A stretch of DNA of 63,816 bases, filler included, from Hausera hauseri (Eukaryota), in NCBI GenBank assembly GCA_046269625.1. It is 9 parts of 9 records of this genome, joined end to end, with 100 filler letters (N's around TTAATTAATTAA, not from the genome) between each part and the next. Parts side by side here need not be neighbours in the genome. Positions count along the whole stretch, not along the records: positions 42,415 to 47,497 come from JBJURY010341490.1; positions 47,598 to 59,483 come from JBJURY010062217.1; 7 more parts are not named here. One strand, given 5' to 3'. Below are positions 30,703 through 63,816 of this stretch, piece by piece. A model generated the notes under the pieces. It was not told the DNA's origin and ran no database searches. It saw only the letters and a program-made list of their open reading frames with translations. Positions within the stretch are counted from its first letter, which is position 1, and each line of letters begins with the position of its first letter. Made by a program: the position numbers and the translations under genes.

Positions 30703-31047
30703 NNNNNNNNNNNNNNNNNNNNNNNNNNNNNNNNNNNNNNNNNNNNTTAATTAATTAANNNNNNNNNNNNNNNNNNNNNNNNNNNNNNNNNNNNNNNNNN
30801 NNATGCGTGTGGAAACGGAGATGGATTTAGTGTATCAGTAATGAAAATATTACAACCGCAACTGAGAGAATTACGTGAAAGAATCCAGGTCGGACAAGCG
30901 GCATTAATGAACTATGACTTACCTGACGCAGAGAACGAAGCCGAGTGGGATGAATATCTCCAAGGTCTAACCGAGCAAAGTCAAAGAACCCCGATACAAA
31001 TTTATGAGTCGCCTACGGGTGCATAAAAGACGAAATTTGATGTCCAA

Positions 31048-33960: not shown

Positions 33961-34649
33961 AAAAATGCTTAAGGTTTACGAAGAAAATCGCTGGGAAAAT
34001 GATGTAGAACGCCACATCGGATGCTATAACCGCAAACGACGAGGAAGGCCCTCCATTTTGTATAGACATAAAAATACGACAATAGTAACACGAAAGAATG
34101 ATTCAGATGATGACGAGCCTAATGGAGGAGAAGTGAGTTCCAGAAAGAGGATGCACAAGATGTACTCAGTGATTAATGCGCCATTGTCCATCATGCCGCC
34201 AACAGCACCAATATATGAAGACTGCGACCGCAAATTAATCGTATCATGTGGGTCCGAAATCTATCAAAAATCCATTAATTACGAAGATCCTTATGAAAAA
34301 AACAAAACAATACGGAGTACTATGGAAAATGAATGTTATCCACCAAGGACCAACCGAAAACGACCACGGAATATTGTACTCGAAAAGGATACCGCGTCAC
34401 ACAGAATCGAAATCAACAATCTGGGAGAACTCGAAACTGTGTTCGATCTCAAGTTCACTACCCCAGGAACTGCTCATTGATAGTCGCGTTACCGATATAA
34501 CAAAAAAACGACTTGTATCCGAACGGTGAATTACGACAATTAAGGCAAGATATTATTTCATCGCCAGAAATAACGATAAATGGACATAGAATCTCTACTA
34601 TACAACAGTCAAAGGTAGCGTCAAATTGCTACGGAACAGTAGTAGAAGG

Positions 34650-43094: not shown

Positions 43095-45817
43095 AAACCA
43101 CAACACTTTTCGCATTGCTCCACTCTAACCGCTCCATTTGCATCAATAAGTTCTGTCAAGAAAAAACGGCCTATTCAATGGACCGCCAAGCTAGTCAACG
43201 CTTTCGATCACCTCAAAGACAATTTAAAAACTGTAGAATCCTGGCATATCCAGACTCCCATGCAGAGCTCTTCTTAACCACAGACGCATCTACAACAACT
43301 GCAAGTGCTGTCCTTTATCAAGTCAAAAATTGATCCCATTAGCCATTGGAATTCTTCTCTCGAAAATTCACTGCACAAGAGCAAAGATAATCCACCTTTG
43401 ACTGAGAGTTGCTTGCAATGGTCCTTGCCGTGAAACACTTTAAACATTTACTAACTGCACAAACTTTTACAGCACAAACGGACCACAAGCCCTTGTTTTA
43501 AATTCTCACAATGAAATCGCCTTCTCCACGTTAGGAGTGGAAAATATCATATTTGTCCACATTTAATTTTCAAATTAAGCATCTAAACGGAGCTGACAAT
43601 TTATTAGCAGACTTTTTGTCCCGATCGGTCAGCTCGGTTGATTTTACACCAATTTTCCTCAGTCCAAACTTCAACAAAACCAGCCACCTCCTGACATCTT
43701 TAAGTATTTTAAATCGTGCAAAACCATCGATGGTGTGGCCTTTGACACCTCCAAACCTAACAAACCTAAAGTCATCCTCTCTGAATCGCTTCAAAACGAA
43801 GCATTCAACAGCTTCCATTCGTTGCATCATCCCGGTGCCAAGGCCACGTTCCGACTCTTACCACGCAAAGTAGTATGGCTGTCGATAAGCTCTGATGTGC
43901 AGACATGGGTTAGGCAGTGCGTGGCATGCCAAAAATACAAAGTTACTAAGCATTTAAAGCCACCACTATTTCATTTTCCCTGCACGTCTCGTTTCGAATC
44001 TGTTCACATTGACCTTGTAGGCCCACTACCCTTAGACAACGGCCATTAGTTCATCCTTACAATGATGGACCGTTCCTTGCGATGGCCAGAGGCTGTCCCG
44101 CTTCGGAGCACCAACACAGAAACCATAGCAGACGTTTTCATCCGCACTTGGATAAGCAGGTTTGGATCAACTCGCTACATAATTTCGGACCCAGGTCCAC
44201 AGTTCGAATCCAACCTGTTTAAAGATCTTATCAATCGATTGGGAATTAACCACATTCGCACATCACCATATCATCCCCAAGCGAATGGCCTTCTTGAACG
44301 CTTTCACCGAACGATAAAAACGTCTCTCAAAATCCTTGCTGAGTCCAATCGCAGATGGACTTCGTACGTTCTGCTTGGCTGGCGGAACACACCATCTTCT
44401 TCTATAGGATGTTCACCCGCAGAAGCATTATTTGGCACTTCCATCAGATCATTATTCGAACTGACTGAGCTGGACAATACTCCTGCAGACGAAACCATAC
44501 AAGCGGCTCAGAGATACATCGTTGAGATCAGCAAGGACTCATTTTGCAGACTGTTACATGTAAATAAACCCTACATACCCAACGATTTATATATTGTCAA
44601 GTTCGTTTGGCTAAAGAATCAGATGCCGTGTTGTTTTTAACCTCAGTATGTCGGCCATTACAAAGTAATTCACATACACTCCCACAACATCATTATTCTC
44701 AAAGACGACAAAGAAGTAACGGTCCACATCAACAACGCTAAACGGTCTTTCTTCCTTGACAATGCGTCTACCATCGAAACCATTTCTTCACCAACATCTT
44801 TACACGACGCGCAGCAATCCAACAATTTATCTTCCATCTCTGCTCAATTTCTTATTCCACTTTCCCCTACGATTTCTCCCAAAACTTTCATTTCAATTTC
44901 TTCTCACAATTCAGCCTCTTTCTCCCCATCTGATTTTCCACCTTCAAGCCTTCCAACACCTCCTCCATCCCCTGGTAACAACCTGCTTTCTCCTCTTGCA
45001 ATACCTCCTCCATCAAACACCATTTCGACTTATCCAATCTCTCCATCAACACTTTTCATGATTCCAACCTTTTGCGTACCACTTACCAACTACTTACCTT
45101 CGCCTTCTCCATCCGCTTGCTCTCTTTCTCCTTGTACCTGTCCTTATCCTCCCACACCTTCCTCATCTTCGGCGTTTTCTTTTCCTTTTATCCTCACACA
45201 TCGTCTTCTACACTTTTCACTTCCGCTTTACAACTTCCTCCGCTTTCCATTTCTATCCCTATCTCTCTTCCTCTGTCTACCACTACCTCTATTTCATCTT
45301 CCTCTTCCACTTTTTCACACAATTCCATTCCAATTTCTTCTCCAACCTTTCTCTCTATTCCTTTATCCGCCACTATACCTTTTATCATTCCTCCGTCTTC
45401 TAATACCTTCTTGAATACCATTATCCATTTGTCTTCAACAATCTCTCTTCCTCCTTCACCTTCTTCTTTTCTTCATTCTAATTCGTCTTCGCACGATACA
45501 ACACTCACAACAAAATCCGAAAAAATTTTCCCAAACATCAACCTTTGCAGACAAACACATCGCATAAATGCAAAACGCGCAGAGTTATATTTAGCAAGTA
45601 TAGCAGGGGAAAATCGATAGAAGGCACCCAACGTCTTGTTCACACGAAGACCAGCTAACACAGACACTTTTTCGTTTTGCGGTTGTTTTTCTTTCTGTAT
45701 CATTTAACTTTTATAGTTTCCACTTTGCCACAGGGGTGACGTGGTGCCCACAGCGGCCGTGCCTTTTGGCGTCCGTTGCCGCAGCGTCGGGTACATAGTT
45801 GGACTCGATTCCCCGCT
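43095..45817 (+). mobile_element. Gypsy family A copy 4 (RNase H, integrase and 3' end only)
   Basis: LTTDAS, HHPGAKAT…CVACQ, VHIDLVGPLP, YHPQANGLLERFHR, S/P-rich tail, 3' terminus homologous to copy 1. Confidence 0.92.
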
Positions 45818-47623
45818 TCGAAAATTTTACAAGTACTTCAACAAATGTATTAAGTACATCTACTCTTTCTCCTTCCTCAAAATTCTCTACTTCAAGCTCA
45901 ATAACTCCATCGTCAATATCAGTAAGTACTAAAACAAAAGTACATCAACACCAGTACCAGTACCTACAGTCAAATCAAGAACAATGTAAGACTACTCGAA
46001 AGTCACACCTACACTTTGATTGAGCTGTGCTATGAGGCGAACGGATACGGGTAATGATAATTCTGTATCCCATTTAGAAGAAATTTCTTTTGTTGAGTCC
46101 ATCAACACGTCTTCATTTAAAAGTAGCTTAAATTTCAGACTACACAACAAATCATATATAGACTTTAATTGCTTTTTGTAACTTTAGGTCCCATTACAAA
46201 GCTTTACACGATTCTTGTAATACTGATATCAGCTGTCCTCTCGAATCTGGTATTGGAAGCTCTATTAGCTCAATCGATGTCAATTGTGGGATTAATTGTA
46301 CCGCATTGGGCTCCAATAGTAATGTCGATTCCGATTTATCATCTCCAAGCAATCAGTCCGGTCATTGTTTCCGACATGATTGTCATGATTTTCCGCCAGT
46401 AACTGAACAAGATATTCGACCTGTTCTTATTAGCAATTTTACATAGCCCAAATGTATTTGAAAATATTAGAGATGAATAATGATGAGAATTCCAAATCTG
46501 AGAAAAAGTCTTGAACATTACCAGTTCATTGTTAATTACTGTAACGTGCATGAAATGGCTGCCAAACTAATGACCTGGACTTGTAAAAAGACATGGTGAT
46601 GTTGCTGCCATGTAAAATAGACAAGATCCGATGAGAAAGCAAAAACGGGAAACAGTTGTAAATTCAAGAAACTCCTCCCGGACCCCATGTAAGTATATCG
46701 GTTTTGGGATGATGCTTATGAAGAGAAACGAATACAAGGTGAAGCAGACATTTACCGATTTTGGATTAATTATGGATTGACTTTATTGGAGTCCACTTTT
46801 GAGCGACTTTTGCCGGAAGTAGTGTGGAAATGTGCTTTCGGTTCCACCCTCCTCCCTCCCCCTCTCCCAGGGGGTCGATAAATCGATTTTTCACATGTGC
46901 CAATCGATAGTGCACACTGTGTACATCGATTGGTGCAAGTGCAAGTGTGCAGCACATGTGCAAGTGTGCAAAAATCAATAATATTAGATTTCCAATATTT
47001 CAAAAAGTGCTGATTATCACTCGTGACCGGGTGAAATGGGTAGAGCACACGATGGACTGTGTGAATGTGCAGTTAGAATTTAAATCGATTGATTGGTTTT
47101 CAAATGATTCCAATTGGTGTAGAACCGCCACGGGACCGGGTGCAATCGGAAGCAAACATGACGTATTATACAAATGTGCAGTTAGAATTTAAATTTATTG
47201 ATTATTTATTGATTAATATCGATCGAAAGTGCAAATTGGCTATATTTTCTCCATGTTTTTAAGCATCAAGGAAGCAAAAATCGACCCAACATTGAGCGGC
47301 GCCAGAGAGAAAATCGAGTACGCCAAACTCGAATTTTGAGTCGGAAATTCGAAATTCGAAGATTTTCGAGTTCGAAAATCGATGTTCGAACTATTCGAAA
47401 ATTCTAACGGTAGGAATCGATTCGATATATATGAAAACCTCCATGTGCATAAAAATTAGTTCATGAAAATATACTATATAGATACAAAATCAATATTNNN
47501 NNNNNNNNNNNNNNNNNNNNNNNNNNNNNNNNNNNNNNNNNTTAATTAATTAANNNNNNNNNNNNNNNNNNNNNNNNNNNNNNNNNNNNNNNNNNNNGGG
47601 TGGATCCTCGCAGGATTTCGTTA

Positions 47624-47641
47624 TGGCGTCCTTGGGGTCCT
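47624..47641 (+). promoter_or_regulatory. Putative primer-binding site (best fit tRNA-Asn)
   Basis: TGGCGTCCTTGGG matches 12 of the first 13 nt of TGGCGTCCCTGGG, then diverges. Confidence 0.45.
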
Positions 47642-47875
47642 AGGAAGGACCTACCCTAAAGAGAGAGAGAGAGAGAGAGGGTTGGACCCTGAACAGGTCT
47701 GACTTGAAGATAAAAGCAGCAGCTGAGAGCTGACTGCTCAGTGAGCTGGCAGGAGCCCCAGCTCACAACCTTCGCAGGAACCACTCCAGCATTTTTATTT
47801 TTTGATTTTTCACTGGTACGCCAGTGTGTTCCAGCATTTTTATTTTTTCACAGGTTACTTCTTCAAAGAGCAAAA

Positions 47876-49248
47876 ATGGCAGAAACTGCAGATCCTGCAG
47901 ATGAGAAAGGCCCTGAGAAGGCTCTGCAGTGGGAGAAAGGCCCTGAGAAGGCTCTGCAGTGGGGAGAAACCCCTGAGAAGGCTCTGCAGTGGGGAGAAAC
48001 CCCTGAGAAGTCTCTGCAGTGGGGGGAAACATCTGTTACAGCTGCACCCCATGTGTGGTGTTGCTATACGGAAGAGGCCCTGCAACATGGAGAAAAGAGA
48101 CTGAGAGACTCTTCATGTTGCATCACATCGAGGCAGACGAAAAGTTTGCCTTAGCAGAAGTACAGGACCTCGTAGAGAAAGGAGACGAGGTCATCTACTG
48201 CCCAAAGCTTGTAGATGGAGAACGACTGGCCGTGGTGAAACATCCGACAGAAATAAAGAAAAAAGAACAGAAAAGAGACTGGCTCAACTGGTGGGTGTCT
48301 TTGATGAACGACTGGAAAACTGGTGAAGTGGCGTCACTGGTCAGCCCGTCAGGTAAATATGACCCCTTAGTGAAGCTTGTGGCCATGGAACAAGGGATCA
48401 GCTTCATCATGCATGACCCCTCAGTAAAGGCAGTGAACAAATATGATGAATTAAAGGAGCCTCTTCTGGCTCTAAATGTCTGGAAGCAACATCGGGTCTA
48501 CAGCCAGAAGCCTGAGGTTCAGGAGAGTGTGCTCGAGGAACCAGGCACACAAAACAGAGCAACGAGCGAAGAAGGCGAGCAGGATGAGAAACAGCTGGTC
48601 GATGACCAAGCTGAACTCTTCGATGAACAAAATGAAGCAACATCTCTTAATGATAAAACCTCGAGGAAGCAGCACCACATCAACCAGCCCCGCGAGGACT
48701 GGCACACCAACGTAAGCCCCCTTCCAGCAGAGGCCAGCAATTTTCCCATGCTGAATGGGATAATGGTGTGTGAGGCTTATGGGGAACCATGGAGCATCTC
48801 GAGTGAGGGACTGCTGGTGGTCACTGACGGCAGCTACAGGGTCCACAGGATCAAGTTCAGGAAGGCCCTGAAAGAACAGGCCGGATCAGAATGCCTGTTC
48901 GAGGTAAATGATTTAAGGAAAAAAGGAACAGCTCAAAAACCGAAGACTCAGACTGAAGCAGCCTTGAAGGGTCCAGCACCTCAACAACCCAGGCACAACC
49001 AGCGAGAGGGCCAATACAGGAGCAATGGGCCCCCACGGCAACACCAGCCTAACAACCAGGGGCAAAGGTATCAGCGGCCACCACAACACCCGCCAAAACC
49101 GCCCAGGAGAAATCCTACAGCAGGTCCTGGTGCTGGGGCCAAGAAGCCTGGATATCTACCCCGGGAAGAGTACAACAAATTGACTCCTGAGCAGAAAGAT
49201 GCCCTCCGTCAGGCCAGGGAACAAGTGGCCGGGAGGGCTCCGAAGTAA
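47876..49248 (+). pseudogene. gag: gag-like ORF with one frameshift (~48100)
   Basis: ATG 47876; frame changes to ORF 48019-49248; C-terminus rich in Q/P/R/G, no zinc knuckle; lies directly before pol. Confidence 0.7.
47911..48030 (+). repeat. 4 x 30-bp tandem repeat encoding PEKALQW(G/E)(E/K)(T/G)
   Basis: CCCTGAGAAGGCTCTGCAGTGGGGAGAAAC units at 47911, 47941, 47971 and 48001. Confidence 0.97.
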
Positions 49249-52200
49249 TGACCTCCCGGTCCCGGGTCACCCTAGAAAACGTCTACCGAGAGGGGAATGA
49301 CATCTTCATAAAAGTCGATGGTATCCCCTATCTCGTAGATACTGGGGCAGAAGTATCCATGACCCGGAAAGACCTAGAGACCAAAGGATACTTAACGGTG
49401 CAATTGGCAAGCGGAACATTGGAAGAAATGGCCTATGGAATTTGGAAGAATGTAATATGGATAAAAGGCCCAAGTAACTTAATAACTGTTCAAGATTTGG
49501 AGAGTCTGAACAATCCAAAGAAGACTAAAAAATCGACATGGAAAAGACTAGAAGTATTAAAATCAAGATCTTTGAAAATAAGTCCCTCCGCAACACCAAC
49601 CTGGTATAAACCAGTCGAAGTCCCTGAAGTCATGAAACAGAAGGTGGAAGAAAGTGATTTTTCACCAGACGGGAAAATAAGGCTGAAAAGAATAATTGAA
49701 ACAGCCAGAGTCGCCCACTTCAAAAATGATTGTGGGGACCTGGGCACAAGATTTTGTCACCGAATCATAGGAGGAGTCCATCCACCTGTAAAACTGTACC
49801 CACTACACCCAGATGCAGTGGCTGAAATGGACAAAATTGTGAGGGAATTAAATACTTTGGGGATCCTGAGAGAAGAACCAAACCCCATCACAAACAGCCC
49901 CATTCAAGCAGTGAAAAAACCAGAGTCGGCAGGAGGAGGCTGGAGACCAGTCATCAACTTTAAAGCTCTGAACCGGCGCACAGTCGCAAACAGAGCCAGC
50001 CTCATCAACCCCCAAGGAGCCCTGAAAACTCTGAGGGTTAAAAAGTTTAAATCCTGCATTGATCTGGCTAATGGATTTTTCTCACTTCGAATATCTCGAG
50101 AATCTCAAGGGAAAACAGCTTTTACCCATAAAGGGAAAAGCTATGTGTGGCAAAGATTACCCCAAGGATACAAGAATTCTCCCAATGTGTTTCAATCAGC
50201 CGTGCTGGAAATACTTGATGGCCTGGGGGCGGCAGTATACATCGATGATGTATTTATCGCAGATGACACAGAAAAAGAACACCTTCAAAAGCTGGAAAAG
50301 GTAATAAAACGACTTTCTGAGGCAGGACTCAAGCTAAACCTGCCAAAATGTCAGTTTGGAAAGTTTAAAGTTAACTACTTGGGGTTCCAAGTAACTACAG
50401 ACCTGGGGCTTGCAGACGGATACAGAGAGAAAATCCTTCAAATAAAACCCCCCAAGAGTGAAAATGACCTACAGAAGATCTTAGGTCTGTGTAACTATGT
50501 CAGAGACCATGTGCCGGGTTACCAAAAATATGCAAAACCCCTGTACGCCTGCCTGAAGAAAAAAACCACAGAAGAAGGTCGCACAAGGAAAACATGGATA
50601 TGGACTGAAAAGAATCAAAATGAACTGAACAAGTTGAAAGAAGCCATCCAGGAGGCAGTTAGGCTTTAGCCCAGAAACCTAACCTCCAGGTTGGTGGCAG
50701 AAATTCAGTGTGAAGATGAAGACGCTGTGGTCAGGGTAAGCAATGAACATGGAGGCTTGGTCACCCTGTGGAGCACCACACTGCCATCAGTGGAGAGAAA
50801 ATACCCACAGGAGGAAAAAGAACTTGCAGTATTGGCCAAATACTGGAGTCCTTTAAAAGATCTGGCCCAAGGTCAACCCATCAAGGTAATCACCCAGAGC
50901 CAGGTGCATAAATACCTGAGGAAGGGCACCATCGAAAGCACCAAAGCCACTAACACAAGGTGGGGAAGATGGGAAGACATCTTGCTAGACCCAGATCTGG
51001 AGATCGGCCCAGTACAGATTAAAATAAAGAAACAACCAGAAGCTCAAACTGAGGAAAAAATCTATGAATGGGTGCTCTATACCGATGGATCTCGGAAAGG
51101 CCCAGACGAAACAGCCTACTGGGGCTATATCCTGAAACAGAATGGAAAAGAGCGCCATCGAGCCAGAGGAAAAGTGAAAGGAAGCGCTCAAACCGGAGAA
51201 GTAACAGCAGTTCTGGAAGGGTTGCTGGAAATCACCAAAAGGAAGGTTAAAAGGGCAAAAATGGTAACGGATAGTTACTATTGCGCTCAGGCCTTGAAAG
51301 AGGATCTGTCCATCTGGATAGAAAATGGCTTCGAATCAGCAAGAGGGAAGCTTGTGGCCCACAAAGAATTGTGGGAAAAAATAGCCGAGTTACGGACACA
51401 ACTCGACTTAAAGGTGGAACATCAGAAGGCACACACAAAAGAAGGATCCCATTGGAAGGGAAATGATGAAGTGGACAAGTACGTCCAGCAACGCAAAATC
51501 GTCTTGATTGGAGCAGATAAGTGGAACACAGCTCCTAAAGGGAAGGAGGTTCCAAAAGAATACGTGGAGGAGGTTGTGGTGACCGTGCATGAGGCTCTTG
51601 GACATGCCGGGCTGCTTCCCACGCGTAGAGAGCTGGAGAAGCAAGGCTTATGGATTCCAATGAAACAAGTTCGACGCATACTCCAGAACTGCAAAGTATG
51701 TGGGAAATACAACGCAGGAAGGAGAGGGAAAAGAACTGAAGGCCTCACAATCAAAAGCACAGTTCCATGGGGGTCGATCTGCATGGATGTGGCTGGCCCA
51801 ATGGGCACAACAGGGGCAAAAGGTGAGAAGTACCTTATTGTCCTAGTGGACTCCATGTCCGGCTATGTGATTGTGAGACCAGTCAGGAAGGCAAATGGGA
51901 ACAGCGTTGTTTCCATGTTGGATCAGACGTGTTCCTGTTTGGGCTTACCAAAAGAACTGCGGACTGATAATGGCACGCATTTCAAAAATGCACAAGTGGA
52001 TCGGTGGTGTGAACAGTATGGGGTGAGGAGAATATACTCACCGCCATACACACCACAGGCCAACGGGGTAGCGGAACGCACCATCGGATTGGTCAAAAGC
52101 TGGATAGCTAAAAATGCTAACTCCAAGCACTGGAGTCTCAAAGCAATGGAAATTGGCCAGGCCCTGAATGGGCGGGATCGAGCCAGAAGACCGTCCCCCT

Positions 52201-52460
52201 CCGAAGAACTTAACCAACGCCCCTTCATGACAGAAGAGGTGGGGAGGAGCAAGAAGGAGGGTACTGCCTCTTTAGAGGCCTGCCCCATTTCTGAGGGACA
52301 AAAGGTGTGGATAAAAGCCAGAGAACAGCCCAGCTCATCGGCAGTCAAGCCGAAATACGACGAGATTGACATTGTGAAGACTGTGCTGGATCAAAACACA
52401 GTGCTTCTTAAGAAGAGAGGAATCCAAGGAGTTGAACAGCTCAAACCAGTTCTAGATTAA
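49248..52460 (+). pseudogene. pol: pol (PR-RT-connection-RH-IN) with a single in-frame TAG at 50667-50669
   Basis: YLVDTGAEVS; YIDD; LYTDGS…TDSYY…GNDEVD; HEALGH…CKVC; ICMDVAG…RTDNG…NGVAER; both ORF halves are in the same frame. Confidence 0.95.
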
Positions 52461-52476
52461 AGAACCAGAGGTGAAC

Positions 52477-53559
52477 ATGGCTAGTATAATCCTCGATGGC
52501 ACTTTGCCTCCGGCCTACATTCGGCTAGCCACAATTAGAGGCCTTGTGGTCATGAGAAGGAATCCTCTTGGTATATGGGTTGGCAGAGCCCTGAAGAAAC
52601 TAGAGTATGCCAAAGCAGGATATCTGTCCACAGATCAAGAAAACCTGGAATGGGGACCAGGTAGCACAAAATGTGCTATATGCTTGCAAAGCAGTGAATT
52701 AGCACTAACCTGGGCAGGACCAGGAGTGGCTAAACCAAGAAAACCAAAACCTTCTGACATAGAACTCAGAGGGAAGCAACGAGGACCCGTGAAGGTGCTG
52801 GAAGCACTTATCAGCTCGACATGCAGGATCAAAACTCTGCCTCGAGTCACTCTGATTGTGCAATGGGATCACGTCGCAAGGGGACCAAGCAACAGTTGGG
52901 ACGGATACCGCTTGCAGATGTGCCCCAGCTGCATAACATTGTGCCATCATGGGGACCTGATCCAAGCCGCTGAAGCACACGGATGGCAGGTACGGAAATA
53001 CTATTATCCCCTCAGATGCCTCCAATTCGGAGAATTGGCAATTTTTCCGTACGGCTCAGAAGAGACCCAAGGCTGGATAGGCCCGTGGGAGTTAACCACA
53101 TGGGCCACATTGATTAAGGAAGTTGTTGACAACACAGACATCCCCCTCGTGAGTTTTTCCAAAATCCCTAAAGAACCGAGGGTCCGTCAAAATAATCTAT
53201 ACTATTTCACCACTAGTATTGATGCTTGGGCCAGCGCTGGAGCCAAGTCAAAGTACAAAAGGGCCGATTTTCTGGTCACATCTGAAGCTGCAGTCCGTAA
53301 GGGGGTAATGCAAATCCCAATGTCAGTGGCTCATCGTACGGACATGGCCCTTCGTCCTGACTCCACCCAGTGGGTACAAGTGGCAGTCCAGATGGTTGTG
53401 GCACCATTAAAAGGTGTCTACTCGGTGGGAGCAACAATCACGGTATTGAACCCACCCCATGAAGATAACTCAAATCCTATGGGGAAGAAGACATGGCTCC
53501 ACAACACCTTGTCCTGTTTTCCTACCAGGATGAGTAGGGAAAGAACCAACCAGGAGTAA
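52477..53559 (+). CDS. Accessory ORF between pol and env, unknown function
   Basis: Intact ~360-aa ORF starting 17 nt after the pol stop; CAIC and CPSC motifs. Confidence 0.7.
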   Translation: MASIILDGTLPPAYIRLATIRGLVVMRRNPLGIWVGRALKKLEYAKAGYLSTDQENLEWGPGSTKCAICLQSSELALTWAGPGVAKPRKPKPSDIELRGKQRGPVKVLEALISSTCRIKTLPRVTLIVQWDHVARGPSNSWDGYRLQMCPSCITLCHHGDLIQAAEAHGWQVRKYYYPLRCLQFGELAIFPYGSEETQGWIGPWELTTWATLIKEVVDNTDIPLVSFSKIPKEPRVRQNNLYYFTTSIDAWASAGAKSKYKRADFLVTSEAAVRKGVMQIPMSVAHRTDMALRPDSTQWVQVAVQMVVAPLKGVYSVGATITVLNPPHEDNSNPMGKKTWLHNTLSCFPTRMSRERTNQE

Positions 53560-53607
53560 AAAACCGAGGAGAGGGAGAAGAAGAGTCATCGGTTTTGTAC
53601 ACGGTAA

Positions 53608-53913
53608 TTGAAGGGAACAAATCACCAAAGTAACCTTTCACCCAGAGCCACAATGGGAATGGAAATAGTGATCTTCGTGACAGATTACTGGTTTGGAACA
53701 CAAAAAATGGAAATTGTTGTAACACCTCATCCAACAGACAGGTTGGTAATAGATTATCATGTAAGTGGAAATGTAATTAGAAGACGAATTAATTGGGAAG
53801 GGACCCGAGAGGGGTTCTTGGACTTAGTAATTGATCGGATACAACATTACTCAAGAGGAAATCGTTGGGAACATTTGGTAGAAGATTGGAGAGGAGAACA
53901 TTTCCAAAATTAA
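53608..53913 (+). CDS. Small accessory ORF, unknown function
   Basis: ~100-aa sense ORF filling the gap before env, with globular-looking sequence. Confidence 0.45.
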   Translation: MKGTNHQSNLSPRATMGMEIVIFVTDYWFGTQKMEIVVTPHPTDRLVIDYHVSGNVIRRRINWEGTREGFLDLVIDRIQHYSRGNRWEHLVEDWRGEHFQN

Positions 53914-54065
53914 AAGTAGAAGGGAGGGGCACACCTCCACCTTCAAGCCCCTCCCATCAAGAAGATAAAGAGGAGGAACCCATCAGGTTGCAGAACAGTT
54001 CACTCTCAGCAGAGAGATAGAACTTGTCAACTATCCAAATTAAACCCCTGAAGACAAAAGAGAAC

Positions 54066-56444
54066 ATGGACAAGGCCGATGACCCGAAACTCCTCCAAGA
54101 AAACAGCAGCGGCTGCTGCTGCAAGAAAAAGAAAAACTTAAAGATTTGCTCAAGGCTGCTAGCATTATGCATTGCTTCTGCATTAGTTCTGACTATCCTG
54201 TATCAGGCAGGATATGAACCATGGAAGATTACTCATGCTAGAGTATTCCATGCCAACACCAAATATGGGAACCTGACTTGCTGGAACACCAGCTCCCATA
54301 ACATCTTTATACCATGGGATGAAGACAAACCCTTTGACAATCAAGCACGAACCTGGAACCAAATAAAGAAGAAAGGATACAAGGAATGGGAAAAGAATTT
54401 GGCCAACTGGGAGGCATGGGTAAACGAAACGGCTAAACTAAACTGTTCAGCGCATGCACAAACAATCTCGAGCATGCTACCAACAAAAGATGGACTGATC
54501 GTCTGGATCGAAGTGCTGAAACATCAAGAGACTAAAATGACTAAATGCAACTGGATACAACCACATGAAGAACCGCCAGAATGGCACTGTGACTGGAGCT
54601 GCAAACCCCTGTTAGGCCTCAGTTATCAGGGATACTGGCAATACGAGGTTGTCTACCCAGCACCTCACAAGGACATCTTCTGCCATGCCATATTCCCTAA
54701 ATGGGAGTTTTGGGGACACTATGATCTTAAGTGTGACAAGATTCCCCCCAGAAACAAAACTGGGGTAACCAGGCCCAAAAAGAAATACCACCACACTGAA
54801 CCCAAACATACCCATGATCAGATACACCCTAACAGTACTCTAAAACCCATCGTGGAAAAGGTTAAAGTGGATGAAAACTCGAAGACTGAAGAAAGGCAAG
54901 TGTCAATAGAACAGCAACAAGTGGCTGAGCAGTGCCTGAAGTCTATCAGACAACTCGACCCGTGTATTTGGAACATCTGGGTGAAGTGTGTGGGGCAGAA
55001 TTTCATGCCCTTGGGCCCCCTATATTTTCAGTCCTATTATTACACCAACTACAGAGCCGTGTTCAGCCCAACCCGAGCACTCCATGAAGATTGGCTGAAT
55101 TCCACTTTTCCCTGGATTTGGATCAAGAAACAGGTTCTGCACTACGAGGGAGATTTCCCTGAAGGATCAGCCAGAAACCACGAAGGACTTCAAGGACCAT
55201 ACTACTCAGATATGTATGTACAAAGATTACCTACAGTAGAAGAACTGAAATCAGTGCCCAAAAATGATTTTGCCAAAATAGACAGATGTGTAGCTCAAAG
55301 GATCTTCCACAGTCTCAACAATTCTGAGTGGGAGGGTAATGGAGCCTCTCCTAGATGCAGGCTCTGGCAGGTTGATGTCTCCTTCGGATCAACGTGGAGG
55401 TACGATTGTACCAGTGTCCTGCATTATAACAGTACCAAAGAGTTGCTACAAGGATGGATTGAGGGAAAAGGAATCACCAACTGGTTCTGGGACAGGAGAG
55501 ACAAGACACGAACCTGGTGGGGGTTCCAGCGGGAAGAAATGGAACATTGGGTCATTCCCTGTCTGTCCCAGTCCAGCAACTACTGGGTCAAATACCAGTA
55601 CATTGCAACTGTTTATTCGAAGGAGTATGACATCTGGTCTAGCGCCATCTACAGACCAGAAAGATATGTCAGCCCCAGACCATGGAAACTGACATGTGCT
55701 GAATCTGGGGAAACTTGTACGGTGAGTTTGGCAAGAAGACCCTGCAGTGAGCTGCCAAACTGGGAAGGATACTGCCAGAGCTACTACAAGGAAGAGTTCG
55801 AACATCACCTGTCAGCAACGATTTGGACACAGAAAGCCATTCAGGAAAACAGTCCTTACAAGCAATTAATAACTCATTCCCAAAGATCATGGTATCGAGC
55901 CATGGACCTCAGTAATTGTGTGGGAGCCATCATGGGTCCTCACATGAGACATCGTGGGAGTGTGGTTGGAGAAATCATCCCCTCAGTCCCTGACGCCATG
56001 ATCGCTCTGGCTGAAGGCCATGCCTTCAGGAGAGGACTATGTCTGGGGAAGGAAATTGAGGGATTCGAATGGATTGGACCGAACCAGCTCTATTCGAACC
56101 TCACGTGTAAATACCCAGAAGAACAATGGAAAAAGTGCGGGCCGGACACAGATGAGCATACATGTGCATGGTATGAAACTCTGCAAATAACAACTATGAG
56201 AAAAGTAAAAACTCTGGCGAAAGGAGCTATGGAAATTGTTTCTGAAGGAACAGAAGCTGTGGCAGAAGAAACCTTAAAAGTAGTAGAAAAAGTCTGGCCA
56301 TACTGTTTAACAGTTTTGGGGATCCTTATTGCAGCCTACCTCGTCAAATCGGCTCTGACGGAAGTATGTAGCAGAGCCTTGCCCCCAGGAAGGAGGAGGG
56401 GCTACGAGGCCCTCCCCTCGGAGGAGGGCGCTGGCTCCCTATAA
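54066..56444 (+). CDS. env: Putative envelope glycoprotein
   Basis: Intact ~790 aa; N-terminal anchor LLALCIASALVLTIL after a cytosolic leader; many NxS/T sites, Cys/Trp-rich; C-terminal TM YCLTVLGILIAAYLV. Confidence 0.7.
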   Translation: MDKADDPKLLQENSSGCCCKKKKNLKICSRLLALCIASALVLTILYQAGYEPWKITHARVFHANTKYGNLTCWNTSSHNIFIPWDEDKPFDNQARTWNQIKKKGYKEWEKNLANWEAWVNETAKLNCSAHAQTISSMLPTKDGLIVWIEVLKHQETKMTKCNWIQPHEEPPEWHCDWSCKPLLGLSYQGYWQYEVVYPAPHKDIFCHAIFPKWEFWGHYDLKCDKIPPRNKTGVTRPKKKYHHTEPKHTHDQIHPNSTLKPIVEKVKVDENSKTEERQVSIEQQQVAEQCLKSIRQLDPCIWNIWVKCVGQNFMPLGPLYFQSYYYTNYRAVFSPTRALHEDWLNSTFPWIWIKKQVLHYEGDFPEGSARNHEGLQGPYYSDMYVQRLPTVEELKSVPKNDFAKIDRCVAQRIFHSLNNSEWEGNGASPRCRLWQVDVSFGSTWRYDCTSVLHYNSTKELLQGWIEGKGITNWFWDRRDKTRTWWGFQREEMEHWVIPCLSQSSNYWVKYQYIATVYSKEYDIWSSAIYRPERYVSPRPWKLTCAESGETCTVSLARRPCSELPNWEGYCQSYYKEEFEHHLSATIWTQKAIQENSPYKQLITHSQRSWYRAMDLSNCVGAIMGPHMRHRGSVVGEIIPSVPDAMIALAEGHAFRRGLCLGKEIEGFEWIGPNQLYSNLTCKYPEEQWKKCGPDTDEHTCAWYETLQITTMRKVKTLAKGAMEIVSEGTEAVAEETLKVVEKVWPYCLTVLGILIAAYLVKSALTEVCSRALPPGRRRGYEALPSEEGAGSL

Positions 56445-56445
56445 A
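56440..56445 (+). promoter_or_regulatory. Candidate internal-promoter TATA box at the env 3' end
   Basis: TATAAA overlapping the env stop, ~80 nt upstream of the next ATG, in GC-rich context. Confidence 0.4.
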
Positions 56446-56526
56446 GGGAAGCGCGGAGGCGAAAGGAGGAACAACCTCACTGGACATCGAGGAGGACACA
56501 AGACAGCAGAGCAGCTACAAGGAATC

Positions 56527-57492
56527 ATGACCAGCAACCACCCCAAGAACGCCACGCAGGTTATAACAGCAGCACTTTGGCTTCTGCTATACCCTAACAG
56601 TTCAGTTTGGGTATCAGAAGGGGCCCCCGCGCTTGCTCCAATCTACAACATCACGGGAGGAGATGCCATAACGACAACAACAGCCACCCACGCCGAGATC
56701 CAGGAAACCACTGAGTGCTCAACAAAGGCCACGGAGGATTTAACAACAACGATGCAGAACCCCAGCGAGGCAAGACCCTGGGACCCCCCCATAAAGGTCT
56801 CGACAGCAGAGTATTACGCGCTGCTATGTGCCTGGGTTTGCTACTGCATGACTGGAACTTGGAGCACCAAGCAGCCGATGAGAATTCTCATCTTAGCCCT
56901 GTCAATGGGTCAGGTAGCCGTCGGTCGCCTGTTGGGAAGACAAGAGGTGGCCTTATCCCTGTTTGTTTCCTACATCTTAGGGAGAGTCAAACCCCTCACA
57001 CCTAAGTCGACGGTGCTACTTTCCATATGGCTGTTGGTTGAAGGCGTGGTAATGGCTGTAGAATGGCTAAGACGGGTCCCATTTTCTCGGTTCGCACCAG
57101 AAAATATCATCTTGGCTGTCTGGGAAGGACTGCTAGCCATAAGTGTGGTCGTCCTCGTGAGCAAGGAAACCTGTCGTATCACCAGTAGAAAACTAGTCTG
57201 GCTCTGTAGACTCCTCCGCTTACTCCTGTGGGGAGTCGTGTGGGGGGTCTATTCGGCCTTGTACTGGGTTGGGATAATCAGTGAACTGTCTATCATGGTT
57301 TGGTTCATGACCTATGCTGCCCTCCTTCCAGTGAACCAAAAGACCGAAGAAGATCCTTTGGATCAACCTCCTCCTTCACGGAGAAATCCAACGGAGGTCT
57401 GGACAAACAGACCCCGCCCCTTGCACCATTGGGCAAATCCCCCTCCGATCGAAACCCAATTCAATAGGGAACGACCAGAGAGATCAGTCTAA
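56527..57492 (+). CDS. Accessory multi-pass membrane protein
   Basis: Intact 321 aa; N-terminal hydrophobic segment, Thr-rich stalk, about 5-6 hydrophobic helices, Pro-rich tail. Confidence 0.75.
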   Translation: MTSNHPKNATQVITAALWLLLYPNSSVWVSEGAPALAPIYNITGGDAITTTTATHAEIQETTECSTKATEDLTTTMQNPSEARPWDPPIKVSTAEYYALLCAWVCYCMTGTWSTKQPMRILILALSMGQVAVGRLLGRQEVALSLFVSYILGRVKPLTPKSTVLLSIWLLVEGVVMAVEWLRRVPFSRFAPENIILAVWEGLLAISVVVLVSKETCRITSRKLVWLCRLLRLLLWGVVWGVYSALYWVGIISELSIMVWFMTYAALLPVNQKTEEDPLDQPPPSRRNPTEVWTNRPRPLHHWANPPPIETQFNRERPERSV

Positions 57493-57666
57493 AAAGTTTT
57501 TTTTCCCGCTTTGCTTATGCTGCTTACCAAGCCACAAGTTAATTTTGATATTTTTTGTTTTTTGTTTTTCTTTTCCCACCAGTTTATCTGAGCTCTAGCT
57601 CTTTAGATGGTGAAATGTTGCCTTAAGTGTTAAAATATTCATCCTTTGACCCTCTCCCTCTAACAG

Positions 57667-59100
57667 AGACCTCTGTGCCAAAGCTGTGCGAAGACCTTCG
57701 AAGGTATTTCAATCTTCTGGAGATGCCTGGGGGCAAACTAGTGCAACAAGTGCTACCAGGGAACCTTTGAGATCTTGATGGCTATGGCTATCATAGTTCA
57801 AGGTGGGACCCAAAACTGCCCCAGAGCAAGTACTGCGAAGAGCTTTCTCCTTCACAATGATGCACTCATGGTCTGGAGCACCGCTTGGAGGTCTGAAGAC
57901 GCCGCCAACTACGAGGCAGCAGCAGCCCCTCATGGGATTCAATCGATACCTCTCATTCGTAAAGTATGGATGTCAAAATCCACCGATCGTAGGTACATCA
58001 GCCTCCATACACCAGACTATGCTCTGGTAGACCTCCATGTGAAAGAACCCTCTCCAGAACCTCGGGTTGAAGCCACAATGTACCCGCAACCACAGACGTA
58101 TACCATGTTACCAAATGATGGAGGCCCATCAACGCTGACCCGTCAGGTGCTGCCTGAGGGAGCGGCAAATCAACCAGGAAATAACATGGCCACAGATGAT
58201 CTGAATCAAGGGGTTTCTGAGTGGCTGCCCCATAATGTGGAATATGGGAAAACCCTTCTGGGGGGATTGGGGGCTGATGCACCGCTACCCCTCTACGGCA
58301 TAAGTGATCCACCCAACTTGTTCTTGCGTATAGTTCCTGATCCAATAACATCGGAACAAGACGGTCAGCCAATTGACCCGATTGCAAGTGACACGTTATT
58401 CCTGTCTCCAGCGGCTTCTGGGTTCGACGAAGAGCTGGCCTCAAGACGGGCAGACTCTACTGTGGAGACGCCGGTCGAAATGACCCAGGACCCACAAGTG
58501 TCTGATGAACCTCCTCCTCGTGTGGAACACCGCAAAGATCAACGTGTGCAGCGTCATCCCACCCACGAGTCTGGCTCGAGTCCACCAAGAATGGAAGGAT
58601 TTCTAAGGAAATCCCTGGAGGAACCCAACCACTCTACACCCAGAGAGTCCGCTAAAACCAAAGCAGGAGCCAACATTCACGGGGCGGCAAAAAGAAGAGC
58701 CGTAGAGGCATGGGGTCCGATAAACAAACCTCAGAGTTACGACAACCGGTACATGCCAAACAAATTCGTGAAACGAGGAGAGCCATCCAGCTTCGGCCAT
58801 AAACACCGTTCTCGGGATGGGGGCAGTTATCCACCAAAGCATCCAGTCAAGATTCGACCCTGGGAGCATAAAGATCAAAAGCCACAACCTCGCCCTGATT
58901 CCAAGAAGGGGGTGTCAAGTAACTCAGGGGTTAGTGTTGGAATCAGGCCAGAACCCCAGGTCACCGCCCCTCACCCCACAGGACCAAGAAGAGACGACCA
59001 GGTTAAAAGATCAAGAAACAAGGATGACCCTGAAAAGAGGAAGAAGAAAAAAGACAAAAAATGGACTGTTGGAAAGAAATCAAGAAAAGAGAATGAATAA
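57667..59100 (+). CDS. 3' accessory ORF (possibly spliced, transactivator-like), basic C-terminus
   Basis: ORF 57775-59100 extends in frame, past one TAG, to a splice acceptor CCCTCTCCCTCTAACAG|57667; CQSC and CNKC motifs; KRKKKKDKK. Confidence 0.6.
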
Positions 59101-59289
59101 GGCTTTAAACACATATCTGCATCTTAAAATTGCTATATCCTGTAACAGTTTTGCTTGATTATGTAATAACTTTGCTTTACTGTATAACAAGAATTGAATG
59201 ATTTTAAAATGTAATGATCTTTTAGTTAAGTTAGTGAGTCAAGGTTGGAAAGGCAGCAAGTAATTGTGAAATTTGGGCGGCTACGTCCA

Positions 59290-59408
59290 TTTGCAGAAAA
59301 ACAGGAACTGTTTGCAGAAAAACAGGAACTGTTTGCAGAAAAACAGGAACTGTTTGCAGAAAACAGGAACTGTTTGTAGAAAAACAGGAACTGTTTTTCT
59401 ACAAACAG
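59290..59408 (+). repeat. 5 x ~21-bp tandem repeat ending in a perfect 18-bp hairpin
   Basis: TTTGCAGAAAAACAGGAACTG units; CTGTTTGTAGAAAAACAG-GAA-CTGTTTTTCTACAAACAG at 59370-59408. Confidence 0.95.
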
Positions 59409-59583
59409 TAATATGAAACATACTGTGCTAAAAAATTGAATGTATTAAAATGTATGTGTTATTAAAAGGTTTTTGTAAGATGGNNNNNNNNNNNNNNNNN
59501 NNNNNNNNNNNNNNNNNNNNNNNNNNNTTAATTAATTAANNNNNNNNNNNNNNNNNNNNNNNNNNNNNNNNNNNNNNNNNNNN

Positions 59584-59659: not shown

Positions 59660-60530
59660 AGTCCTTCGCAAGCAGAATTTCCACCCCACCCCCACCAATC
59701 CCTGTTTTCCTCCGCCTGCATTGTGTCTATACATTGGTGTTGTTTTGAAACAGTCTCGATACGGTTTCATTTGGTTGCGTTTTTGTTCTTGTACTAACTC
59801 AACCATCACCGCCAGAGCGCTCTTCTTAACGGGCTCTCAAAAGGACAGTTGTAGTCCCAGAAGGCTTGTGGAAGGAGGAGGCTGAGCTTTATTTCCCTGC
59901 CGGTGGTGAATATGAGGTGAACCAAGGTCCTCTAGGTGGTAGTGTAATGTTTGACCTCCCAGAAGTGATCAACCACTCTCGAGCCTTCGCTCATTAAATA
60001 TAGGCTTCTCTGCAGTTGCCGTGAGACACGGAGTGGATGTGGGCAAAGATCTTATCTGACCATCATTCATCAACCCTGGCACGGTGTAGCAGGACCTGGC
60101 TATAATTCTCCATGGGGTCCTCATCGACTCCGTTTCCATTCCTTAGTTAAGTGGTTACATTACAATAGAGCGCGTTGATGCCAGAAGCCAACTCTGCTCC
60201 ATTCAAAGAAAATGGCTCAAAAATGGTTTATGCGGTTTAATAAAGTGGAAAATTTTTGTGATCAGAAATATTGTGTATGTTAAAATAACATAAGGAATTA
60301 TTGTTTACGCGCAGGTGTCACTATCTTGCTATCCTTGATGGTTTTTCTACTACTGGTGGCGGAGACGATGCCACCAACATCAGACGCGTTGCCGCTGATA
60401 GGTAAGTCTGTATGGTTTCTTTATAAGCCCCAGTGGTTAGAAGCCACAACAAAACACACAACAATACTGCATGTTTTTTTTCCCTGTCACTTGCTTAAAT
60501 ATGAGCTGACAAACAAACATATTACGGCGA

Positions 60531-61616
60531 ATGAAAACGAAATACAATTGCTTTGCTTTTCCGTGGGAAACCGAACATAAACAATTGTTTGGGAAGAGAG
60601 TATCCGAGAAAAGTCCAGTATCCGGCAGAGGAAAATCCGGTGGGGTAATTATTGTAATCATATGCGATTTGTTCAGCAACCATTTTATTGATATGCCTTT
60701 TTATGAGTCCCATTATCGTGATGTTGATACTGCAATATTTCGAAATAACGGTTATCCATCAGAATTTAATGTGAGTGAGAGAAATCTTTTTATTTACATC
60801 TGTAACTGTTTTTTGCGTTGTAAAAATTCAGTTCCTAACTTACACCGTATTTACTCAGAGTTGGTGCAGACATCAATCATCAATCAAACTTGTTTCTTTA
60901 GTACGAATAAGAGAGAGTTAAAACAGCCTCATTGCTCTGTTGATTTGTCCAATTGCCCTTCACATGACGATCTAGACGCAGAAATATTCGGCTGTTCTGC
61001 CAGTGTTAGTGATCAGTTCATTAAAAAGTTAAGAGAAGACAGGAGTGGTGATAATTTGCTGACGCATTTTTACGATTTTTTCAAACATTTATTGAATGAC
61101 ATTTTTCTTGGCAAAAAGCCGACAGTTTCCAATGCCTTGGGGATGTGGAAAGATCCCTTGCAGACTTTATATCACCCGGAGAGAAATTTGATTGTAAATA
61201 TACTGTCAATTTTTTCACGTATTCCATTGGCATCTGTAATGATTCTCGACTTTTCCCGAGACATCACTTATCACTACATAGATCACGTACGGTGTTTTCT
61301 TGGACGGGTTTTGTGTTCCACTTTTTTCACCGCAAATAAAGACTCTGATCTCCTTATGAATATCTTCACGTGTTCCTTATCAAATACTATCATAAAGATC
61401 CAACTGTTTTCATGGTTTGGCCAACTCCTCCATTATAATTTAGGATCCAACAGACTTGTTCATTTATTACGAAATGTATCGATTGAAGACGGAATTTTCA
61501 CCAGTGATGGGTTTTTGATAAACTTGCAATGTGTACTTCTGCATCTTTCGAGTCCGTTGTTGCTATATACGTTTGATAAGACAATGTTAATCCAACTGGA
61601 ATCCACTAAACATTAG
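60531..61616 (+). pseudogene. UBE4/Ufd2-like ubiquitin conjugation factor E4, N-terminal/core fragment
   Basis: LFSWFGQLLHYN…FTSDGFLINLQCVLLHLSSPLL resembles the Ufd2 core SDGF.LNL..VL..L..P; no U-box seen. Confidence 0.55.
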
Positions 61617-62016: not shown

Positions 62017-63816
62017 GTGTGGGACTTGCAGCAGCGAGGCGGAATTCTCGGCCGCCCACCATGCGCCATTGGGTCGGACGACGCTGTTCGTTGCCACCCC
62101 ACAATACGCCCCCGGGAATACCACCTGTCCCTACTCAATCTTCTTTTTTTAAATAATGAACATATCCATACACACAGCATTACACTTACATACTGCAGCC
62201 ATTTACACCTGTATCTCTATCTTACCTCACTCCTCTGATTTCTACCTCAAATATAATGGATCTCTAGTACCCCTCGCTGAAACATTACAATCGTCCTCAA
62301 CCCGCATCTGTCTTCACATCTACTTCCGTATCCGTGGTGGCATGGACTCGTCACCCGCAGTTGACACCACGGAGAAACTTACTAGGTCGCAGATCCCCAT
62401 CATCCATTTACCCAAACAAAGCATTTTAAACACTTCAACACAGCACACCCTCCTTACGCATTTACCCTACACCGAATATTTTCTCGACAGCCAAAACTCT
62501 ACTCAAACTTGGCTAAAACTGCATCAATTTTGGCTCCAATCACAAAACGTCGTCGACTCTTTAATCAAAGCCAACAGCCTCTTTTTCCACTTACCAGCCT
62601 TTATCAAAACTAAAATTAACAATATAATCGATATTCTTCAGCACAATGACCCATATACCCAACTCTATAATGCAGTTCTCAAGCTTACTGAGCCTTTAAT
62701 CGATTCAATCATTGAAAGGTTCTTTAACGATAACGCCATTGACCTTCAGAAGCCTTCTGAATTCCTACGCACATCCTTGTCTTACCTCAACACCCTTGGC
62801 GTAATATCTGAACGCAGTCCCGAGCTTATTCGTCGCTACTTTTTAAATGCATTGCCCCTTCAAATAAGAGCTTTGCTTATTGTGATCGAAGACTCCACGG
62901 CTCTGGACAGGCTAACCGGATTGGCAGAAAAAGCATATGAAGTATTGCACTCACACACAACAACAACTATCTCTGAGGCATTGAAAACAGACCAACAACA
63001 ACAAAATGCAATGCTGCAGTAGCAAATAGCACAATTGCGCACGGAAAATAAAAAGTTACAGAACACAATTAACAATATAAGCGAAAAATTAAACGAATTA
63101 ATGCTGCCTCGACGGGGTTTTTCAAGAGCTGCCTCCGCTAATATATTCAGTCAACGTCAAAGACGGTCGCCTTTGCCCGCGCGGTCATCCATTTGCCATT
63201 ATCATAGAAAATTTGGTAATATTGCTCAAAAATGCTGCATCGGTTGCAAATTTCACTCCCCGACTTTAACACAAGAAACATCGTTTGAATCTGAAACTCA
63301 AAATTTGGAACAAAAGCACAAAAATGCCTACATGGCTGTACCTACAACACATAACTAAACTAACACTACTACATTCACACAACACAGTAAACTAAACTCA
63401 CCAACTACAAAAAACTAATTTCGCCACTAGTTCACACAACAAGTCCTAGCAAAGGCAACAACCCTCAAAAGACAGCCGACACATCTCTTTTGCTGTATTC
63501 ACATTGGAAGCAGCAGTCGTCACTCCAACAAAGCAAAACATTAACTTTCTTAGAGACATCGGCGCAGCAATCTCTTTATTGCCATCAACACAACACATCC
63601 AAAACAATTACACTTCAAAAAAGAAACTGTTCACTGCGTCCGGAGAACCCTTACAGATTTTTGGAGTTACCAAATTAACATTCACTCTTCCACACCTCCC
63701 AAACACATTCGCATGGAAATTTACAATAGTCAATGTACGCACACCTATATTGGGTTCAGACTTTCTGTCCTACTACCATTTACTTGTAGATTGCAAACAA
63801 TGTTCATTAAAATGCG
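62017..63816 (+). mobile_element. Gypsy family A copy 5 (5' terminus, Ubl-Gag, protease; runs off window)
   Basis: TGTGGG start, leader homologous to 7801-7960, Gag, CHYHRKFGNIAQKCCIGC, frameshift heptamer, protease ILGSDFL. Confidence 0.93.
62156..63022 (+). CDS. gag: Ubiquitin-like domain (…HIYFRIRGG) fused in frame to Gag
   Basis: DFYLKYNGSLVPLAETLQSSSTRICLHIYFRIRGG|MDSS… followed by Gag (KPSEFLR…RYFLNALPLQIRALL). Confidence 0.8.
   Translation: MNISIHTALHLHTAAIYTCISILPHSSDFYLKYNGSLVPLAETLQSSSTRICLHIYFRIRGGMDSSPAVDTTEKLTRSQIPIIHLPKQSILNTSTQHTLLTHLPYTEYFLDSQNSTQTWLKLHQFWLQSQNVVDSLIKANSLFFHLPAFIKTKINNIIDILQHNDPYTQLYNAVLKLTEPLIDSIIERFFNDNAIDLQKPSEFLRTSLSYLNTLGVISERSPELIRRYFLNALPLQIRALLIVIEDSTALDRLTGLAEKAYEVLHSHTTTTISEALKTDQQQQNAMLQ

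Follow-up and report, generated by a model that had tools for sequence, protein, structure and literature searches.

A foamy-like endogenous retrovirus with a shortened Gag and a small gene between pol and env in a Hausera hauseri assembly

Introduction

Is the endogenous retrovirus (ERV) at positions 47598 to 59483 of our window, a 63,816-nucleotide (nt) stretch of DNA from the Hausera hauseri assembly GCA_046269625.1, a nearly intact member of a recently active foamy-like lineage with accessory genes of its own? The sequence-only reading had described a young, complex provirus with only about three lesions and with four accessory open reading frames (ORFs), two of them between pol and env. 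We place the element with near certainty in the percomorph AliFLERV/AciFLERV clade of foamy-like ERVs (Aiewsakun 2017; Ruboyianes 2016), and we find three point lesions together with an in-frame loss of about 600 Gag codons. The explanation that we favor, and regard as fairly probable, is a young family without a capsid that multiplied with the Gag of a helper, this element being one of its dead copies.

The element fills one whole contig (11,886 nt), bounded by the N44-TTAATTAATTAA-N44 spacers that join the nine contigs of the window. The neighbors in the window are not the genomic context of the ERV. On the plus strand, gag is followed by pol, orfA, orfB, env, orfC, and orfD, which confirms the layout first proposed. 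That elements of this clade can be young and complex and can carry ORFs between pol and env has been in print since 2016-2017; two ORFs in the pol-env interval had already been published for AciFLERV/AcERV.

Results

Clade placement

The pol gene (49248 to 52460) starts at its own ATG, overlapping the gag stop as in AliFLERV, and encodes protease (DTGA), reverse transcriptase (RT; YIDD), tether, RNase H, and integrase. Significant Pfam domains (RT, tether, RNase H, and integrase) were confined to pol; gag, orfA, orfB, env, orfC, and orfD had no significant Pfam match, and orfA, orfB, and orfD had nothing significant against solved (PDB) sequences. Among solved structures, foamy protease-RT was the best match to the N-terminal half of Pol, with an E value of 2e-58 versus 8e-33 and 4e-24 for the next families. 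The nearest Pol proteins are 63 to 74% identical to that of the element, and those with named sources come from percomorph fish (Siganus, Poecilia, Xiphophorus, Zoarces, Larimichthys, Syngnathus, Anarrhichthys, and Knipowitschia). Phylogenies of the two pol halves, with no mammalian foamy virus or lokiretrovirus rows among their sequences, placed both halves in a 13-row percomorph clade (support of 98/99 and 99/99) and the C-terminal half as sister to Poecilia and Xiphophorus (95/96). Env points the same way, matching 94 clusters, of which 18 were looked up; 14 of these carry a species name, and all 14 are teleost. The best Env identity (60 to 65%) is to proteins of Austrofundulus limnaeus, the host of AliFLERV. 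The host of the element is probably a percomorph fish of killifish type. A scan of viral contigs and of metagenome contigs with pol yielded no related locus, and a scan of prokaryote genomes yielded a single distant RT (28%; L001).

An in-frame TAG interrupts pol at 50667-50669. Among 19 relatives matching both pol halves at >300 bits, 17 are collinear across this position, supporting the initial view of the TAG as a lesion. Programmed readthrough was ruled out, since the relatives are open at that position.

Three foamy-like or related proteins in the databases deserve separate mention. P0017 is a foamy-like Pol labeled as coming from a Vagococcus metagenome-assembled genome, and P0133, labeled "transposase InsO" in JGI/IMG, is an integrase piece 70% identical to the element; both are probably fish DNA within microbial data sets. 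P0015 (Knipowitschia) joins a foamy-like Pol to an AAA_11/AAA_12 helicase, probably through a gene-model fusion.

The closest described element is AliFLERV of Austrofundulus limnaeus (Aiewsakun & Katzourakis 2017, PMC5512871). Compared by eye with its published supplement, it is alike in the leader, both Gag ends, the pol start overlap, acc3, env, acc1, acc2, the TATA box before acc1, the splice acceptor before acc2, the border between polypurine tract (PPT) and long terminal repeat (LTR), and the overlap of acc2 with the LTR. It differs in its gag (3.24 kb versus 1.37 kb here), in a longer acc3, and in that the available annotation has no ORF between acc3 and env, where orfB sits here. AliFLERV therefore is not, to the letter, the near-identical ERV with the same ORF set that the sequence-only reading had envisaged as a counterexample, being diverged and carrying its small ORFs at a different position.

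Elements of the AciFLERV/AcERV type from Midas cichlid, platyfish, Poecilia, and croaker (PMC5512871, PMC5210030) share with ours two ORFs between pol and env, more ORFs after env, the GGGTG border, the lack of a Cys-His box, and young insertions. They differ in that their second pol-env ORF is Acc4 (334 amino acids [aa]), unrelated to orfB, in their Gag of 3.3 to 3.4 kb, and in their genomes of >17 kb; AciFLERV also has a duplicated acc1. The published orders are gag-pol-acc3-acc4-env-acc1a-acc1b-acc2 for AciFLERV and gag-pol-acc3-env-acc1-acc2 for AliFLERV (PMC5512871). An acc4 gene between acc3 and env is absent both here and in AliFLERV, so it is variable in the clade. For ERVs of this same type, PMC5210030 reports purifying selection on the ORFs of the pol-env interval, the Gag length just given, and insertion ages of 15,000 to 284,000 years.

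The shortened Gag

The gag gene (47876 to 49248) spans about 1.37 kb, compared with 3,237 nt in AliFLERV (PMC5512871), and carries two distinct defects. The first is a frameshift within a 30-nt tandem repeat (47903 to 48030; 4.2 copies) whose length varies between copies. Gag homology continues upstream of the first in-frame ATG, ruling out a gag start at the ATG at 48115 without frameshift, and contigs from three of four compared sequencing runs differ across the array so as to restore a continuous gag frame. The frameshift noted at the outset is thus real.

The second defect had been missed when only about three lesions were counted. Relative to four full-length relatives (1120 to 1166 aa), about 600 central Gag codons have been lost in frame near 48930, which undercuts the near-intact status of the element. 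The match to residues 371-445 of the relative P0143 ends at 48936 and that to its residues 1065-1162 begins at 48916, so that the ends of these matches define a junction (48915 to 48940) of the N-terminal part of a macrodomain with the C-terminal Gag tail. Another relative, P0141, is matched only at its residues 40-216, 350-431, and 1083-1110, and the missing residues have no match elsewhere in the window. Retained are the N-terminal domain, the first part of the macrodomain, and a basic Gln/Arg/Gly/Pro tail, with no Cys-His box in the Gag translation; a Gly/Gln/Arg-rich tail without this box is typical of the clade (PMC5210030). The very long Gag that is likewise typical (3.2 to 3.4 kb) is not found here, making the element a deletion variant rather than a typical member. 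The lost region was strongly conserved: of the seven 50-residue windows that cover P0141 residues 701-1050 in the alignment of the four relatives, six each contain 10 to 20 invariant columns.

A structural model of P0141, built from four sequences with a mean pLDDT of 44, contains a macrodomain at about residues 358-545 (Z of 10.0 to 10.8; root mean square deviation [rmsd] of 3.2 over 155 at Z 10.0). Pfam Macro scored above its cut-off in one full-length Gag (P0144), more weakly in two, and not at all in one, and one such full-length Gag is already labeled "Macro domain-containing" in UniRef. The Gag of our element keeps only the first ~80 residues of this domain. P0019 (Coilia), a more distant foamy-like protein of fish, also has a Macro domain (E of 3e-4) in its Gag part, at residues 87-186 near the N terminus; together with P0143 and P0144, this may indicate a trait that is wide in fish foamy-like ERVs. 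In the available text of PMC4977317, the fish ERVs credited with macro domains are all epsilon-like.

Related copies in other sequencing runs

Twenty-four runs with 24 organism labels contain fractions of 0.15 to 0.78 of the words sampled from the element, nine of them half or more; no RNA data set was among the runs listed. In the four runs compared by contig, 692 to 1984 contigs per run map to the element across all 30 bins; from these we consider the best 32 of 4687 pieces, 15 of 35 joints, and 24 of 579 loose ends. The Gag junction is crossed in run X1 by one contig (48592-49002) that has 5 differences over its 411 nt, and a short-Gag form thus exists outside this assembly. Several env pieces show 0 to 2 differences over 290 to 950 nt. 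Internal deletions of 53656-56346 (orfB and env) and 57677-58872 (most of orfD) recur in X1, X2, and X3, and one of the integrase core (51728-52376) is among those recurring in contigs of two to three of the four runs. This pattern fits a young multicopy family with many defective forms, with the proviso that depth gives no copy number.

The foamy-like, complex, and recently active character first proposed is supported by the RT match, the nearest Pol proteins, the pol trees, and the related and near-identical pieces in other runs. Its youth is supported by these pieces and not by LTR dating: the contig ends inside both LTRs, with ~26 nt left of the 5' one and 571 nt of the 3' one, and as there is no LTR pair such dating is impossible.

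Explanations of the short Gag

How could a family with such a Gag have spread? The element itself would operate in foamy style, with Pol made from its own ATG, plus-strand synthesis primed at the PPT with its GGGTG border, and the 3' accessory genes perhaps transcribed from the TATA box that closes env, one of these genes via a spliced exon. If the family spread with the help of a relative, as we think fairly probable, the lost Gag block would include the capsid, leaving the short-Gag form unable to build a core; that form would most likely be packaged with the Gag of a full-length relative. The leader, primer-binding site (PBS), PPTs, and LTRs would have been kept, as required in cis. In addition, the gag frameshift and pol stop make this copy dead. 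Helper dependence as a property of the family is a reading toward which we lean slightly.

Modeling suggests that the lost block likely includes the capsid-forming part. A helical block of the P0141 model (residues 891-1000) matches the prototype foamy virus capsid weakly (Z of 5.1; rmsd of 3.3 over 70; rank 50), and Atlas leads for the lost block include Retrotrans_gag at 0.87.

Several points weigh against helper-dependent spread. The X1 contig is the sole one among the best 32 of 4687 pieces to cross the Gag junction, and it does not establish family-wide shortness. A full-length helper was not seen in the same genome. A purely intracellular parasite needs no unbroken env, though youth alone can explain why env is intact. 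The capsid match lies within the chance range and comes from a model of low mean pLDDT (44, four sequences), the Atlas scores for the lost block are all below 0.9 with mixed families, and a profile search of solved sequences with the Gag alignment gave no matches. The comparison with AliFLERV was made by eye against its published supplement, and the pol trees lack mammalian foamy and lokiretrovirus rows.

The main rival, which we judge unlikely on balance, is that the element derives from an ordinary autonomous virus of AliFLERV type that suffered a single Gag loss after insertion, at a locus common by descent to the source and X1. Such a history is consistent with the single junction-spanning contig among the pieces listed, with the Gags of 1120 to 1166 aa in four of four full-length relatives, and with the other internal deletions common to X1, X2, and X3, which indicate that deleted loci persist across runs. 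However, the loss is in frame. Two weak hints also argue against a single deleted locus: neither a joint nor a loose end lies near 48930 among the best 15 of 35 joints and 24 of 579 loose ends, and the depth of the bin at 48789-49185 is level with that of neighboring bins in four of four runs.

It is improbable that the short Gag is instead a functional compact Gag of a replication-competent lineage that shed the macrodomain and central block. In its favor, the junction is in frame, the pol, env, and accessory frames are otherwise long, and third codon positions account for 6 of the 10 pol differences listed (the listing comprises 40 of 1174 differences, most of them confined to this copy). 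In orfD, 3 of 16 listed differences do so, and the codon-position count is therefore no test of selection. Against a compact Gag, a macrodomain cut midway is unlikely to fold, the conserved block that was lost matches no other ORF, and the retained N-terminal domain, alpha/beta when modeled in a relative, offers no helical capsid. Least probable of all is an assembler mosaic of several copies, conceivable because the family is multicopy and the contig ends lie inside both LTRs, in which the short gag or the position of orfB would be artifactual: the X1 contig crosses the gag junction, an X3 contig (53501-55333; 7 differences in 1833 nt) joins the end of orfA, orfB, and env, and no run exceeds 0.78 of sampled words, so none looks like the source sample.

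Accessory genes

Of the accessory gene set thought to be the element's own, orfA, orfC, and orfD proved to be the published Acc3, Acc1, and Acc2, which leaves only orfB, and the place where it sits, as specific to the element. orfA (52477 to 53559; 360 aa) is an acc3 homologue by eye against the published Acc3, which has 465 aa in AciFLERV, and by BLASTP (47% over 128 aa to Lates P0049; E of 1e-32). It lies directly after pol, as in the percomorph foamy-like ERV clade, and has a one-letter insertion near its start in contigs of three runs.

orfB (53653 to 53913) encodes 86 aa and had no BLASTP match at E 0.1 among 144 collected proteins, including the Acc4-like N-terminal part of P0020. Identity with Acc4 was ruled out by this lack of a match and by size (86 versus 334 aa). 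The AliFLERV supplement (PMC5512871), translated by eye, contains at ~12,580-13,440, between env and acc1 and behind a TATA box, two clear and perhaps three tandem small ORFs, unannotated there and orfB-like. orfB aligns by eye with two of them over its full length, including the last seven residues. Because orfB precedes env here and its likenesses follow env in AliFLERV, the clade appears to hold a small accessory gene family sitting at different positions. The corresponding AliFLERV stretch of ~1.1 kb between env and acc1 is absent here, and the end of env runs directly into the TATA box. Coding for a small soluble protein and lying behind a purine tract, orfB is most likely expressed from a spliced message. 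Two 27-residue matches from the orfB scan, in very long contigs (L002, L003), were taken as chance.

The TATAAA box (56440 to 56445) lies at the env stop, 87 nt 5' of the orfC ATG, and is a candidate internal promoter; the same box and context are found in AliFLERV before the corresponding part of acc1. orfC (56527 to 57492; 321 aa; frame open from 56359) is an acc1 homologue by eye and by BLASTP (P0078, E of 5e-21; P0045, E of 4e-11), with no usable Atlas match. Its product has a Thr-rich stalk, at least four hydrophobic segments, and a Pro-rich tail; we take it for a probable accessory protein that crosses the membrane several times and may target surface proteins of the host. The available text of PMC5210030 states that membrane motifs were not found in the accessory genes of its elements.

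orfD (57667 to 59100), the acc2 homologue, starts after a splice-acceptor-like site, has two Cys-x-x-Cys pairs, and extends 188 nt into the 3' LTR. The acceptor and Cys pattern of its start are also seen by eye in AliFLERV and AciFLERV, and BLASTP found no match to it among the 144 collected proteins. The TAG in the 3' ORF, the third of the lesions first counted, is real: it lies in frame at 57739-57741 and is present in none of the listed contigs from four of four runs. Neither orfC nor orfD had any Pfam or PDB sequence match, Tas and Bet included.

An unbroken env

The env gene (54066 to 56444) is unbroken and encodes 792 aa with N- and C-terminal membrane helices, 30 Cys residues, and 11 N-glycan sequons. 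No furin-type R-x-K/R-R motif is present, and a single R-x-x-R occurs at residue 530; furin sites are also reported missing in four related elements (PMC5210030). An Env model built from 48 sequences (pLDDT of 74; pTM of 0.66) has many long beta-hairpins. Searched as a whole protein, so that single-domain matches may escape, it had no Foldseek match at E 0.001 in PDB or BFVD, and its best VIA-align Z scores were 5.3 and 4.8. The only suggestive match was the RSV F head (Z of 3.5; rmsd of 8.0 over 123). Class II fusion proteins (dengue E and hantavirus Gc) were ruled out as the Env fold, their matches being weak with rmsd >20. A profile search of solved sequences with the Env alignment found no matches, and 0 of 48 Env rows matched PF00523 at E 0.1. 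The Env of mammalian foamy viruses has a class I, paramyxovirus-F-like fold and is cleaved at two sites (PMC11468914).

Leader, LTRs, and other contigs of the window

The contig starts with the last bases of the 5' LTR (47598 to 47623), which by eye resemble the AliFLERV LTR end just before its PBS. Next, by position and motif, comes a PBS-like stretch beginning TGGCG (47624 to 47641), which may be of the Asn tRNA type. It departs from the published Lys-type PBS of AliFLERV. The leader just before the gag ATG contains a duplicated pyrimidine-rich, acceptor-like stretch (47797-47855) that varies between copies.

A AGGAGAGGG purine tract within integrase (51720 to 51728) is a candidate central PPT, a role suggested by foamy virus biology, and has a second copy at 53567. 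The 3' PPT (58903 to 58912) is followed by the first 571 nt of the 3' LTR (U3; 58913 to 59483), where the contig stops. We set the LTR start at 58913 because the PPT:LTR border matches those of AliFLERV and AciFLERV. GGGTG straddles this border (58910-58914), as described for fish foamy-like ERVs (PMC5210030). A 21-nt repeat in U3 (59290-59396; 5.1 copies) varies between copies.

The ERV contig has a GC content of 0.478, compared with 0.378 to 0.409 in the other contigs, and an observed/expected CpG ratio of 0.44, compared with 0.66 to 1.13 in the other eight. Because strong CpG depletion is confined to the ERV contig, the window probably contains, besides fish DNA, sequence from a second organism that is likely an invertebrate. 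Four contigs (1-10976, 17917-24055, 42415-47497, and 62153-63816) hold decayed Gypsy-type elements related to one another (repeat families D2-D10), and two of these contigs have Pfam matches to RT, RNase H, and integrase. The minus strand of 11077-17816 carries a BEL/Pao element, likewise decayed (DUF1759, RVT_1, and Peptidase_A17). Two related CpG-unsuppressed contigs (24156-30702 and 30803-36761) contain three ORF pieces matching Monjiviricetes_fusion, a chuvirus-like glycoprotein (E of 1e-15 to 5e-17); we read these as broken endogenous viral glycoprotein genes that a retrotransposon may have carried. At 60284-61613, a frame of 368 codons matches Ufd2P_core (E of 9e-7), and its start is overlapped by an exon for the membrane part of a ligand-gated ion channel (PF02932; E of 1e-7).

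Discussion

Our analyses describe an element that differs from published members of its clade in its short Gag, in the identity and position of orfB, and in an Env without a fold match or furin site. Among other known systems, ERV-foamy-Xeve of swordtail fish (preprint PMC12642411), compared by its main description, is likewise young and possibly still invading; its Env is intact, and one of its extra ORFs, which number three or more, encodes a membrane domain. It differs in its 17-kb length, full Gag, and identical paired LTRs. Mammalian Spumaretrovirinae, represented by prototype foamy virus, provide the closest solved RT and share the separate Pol start codon, basic Gag tail, GGGTG border, Env with two membrane helices, and 3' accessory genes behind a candidate internal promoter. 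In contrast to them, our element has ORFs between pol and env, lacks Pfam matches to foamy Gag, Env, Tas, or Bet, and encodes an Env with no furin site, whose model, searched as a whole protein, had no match among solved fusion proteins. Lokiretroviruses (Wang & Han, PMC7947760) also have fish hosts and a tether with RNase H, but in their case Env is similar to PF00523, with an RXKR site and a coiled coil. Lokiretrovirus identity was ruled out by the lack of PF00523 matches in all 48 Env rows and by the absence of the RXKR motif.

A broader reading, which we offer tentatively and think rather unlikely as a whole, would join these observations. The clade Env would be a fusogen of unsolved fold and not class I, the envelope having been replaced; the Gag macrodomain would possibly counter host ADP-ribosylation; and the element would belong to a capsid-less satellite family that recently reached many related fish species with the aid of a full-length helper, keeping Env and a movable 86-aa gene. 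A literature search, mostly of titles and abstract starts with few subscription papers, found no report of a helper-dependent or defective-satellite strategy for fish foamy-like ERVs, of the Env fold of this clade, or of a macrodomain in its Gag.

The Env fold and the Gag macrodomain are of more interest than the finding as first framed. If the short-Gag family is helper-dependent, it would represent a defective-satellite strategy in fish foamy-like ERVs. The macrodomain, if real, would account for part of the puzzling size of the clade's Gag, and an unbroken Env with a confident model and neither cleavage site nor fold match makes the question of the clade's fusogen testable by structure.

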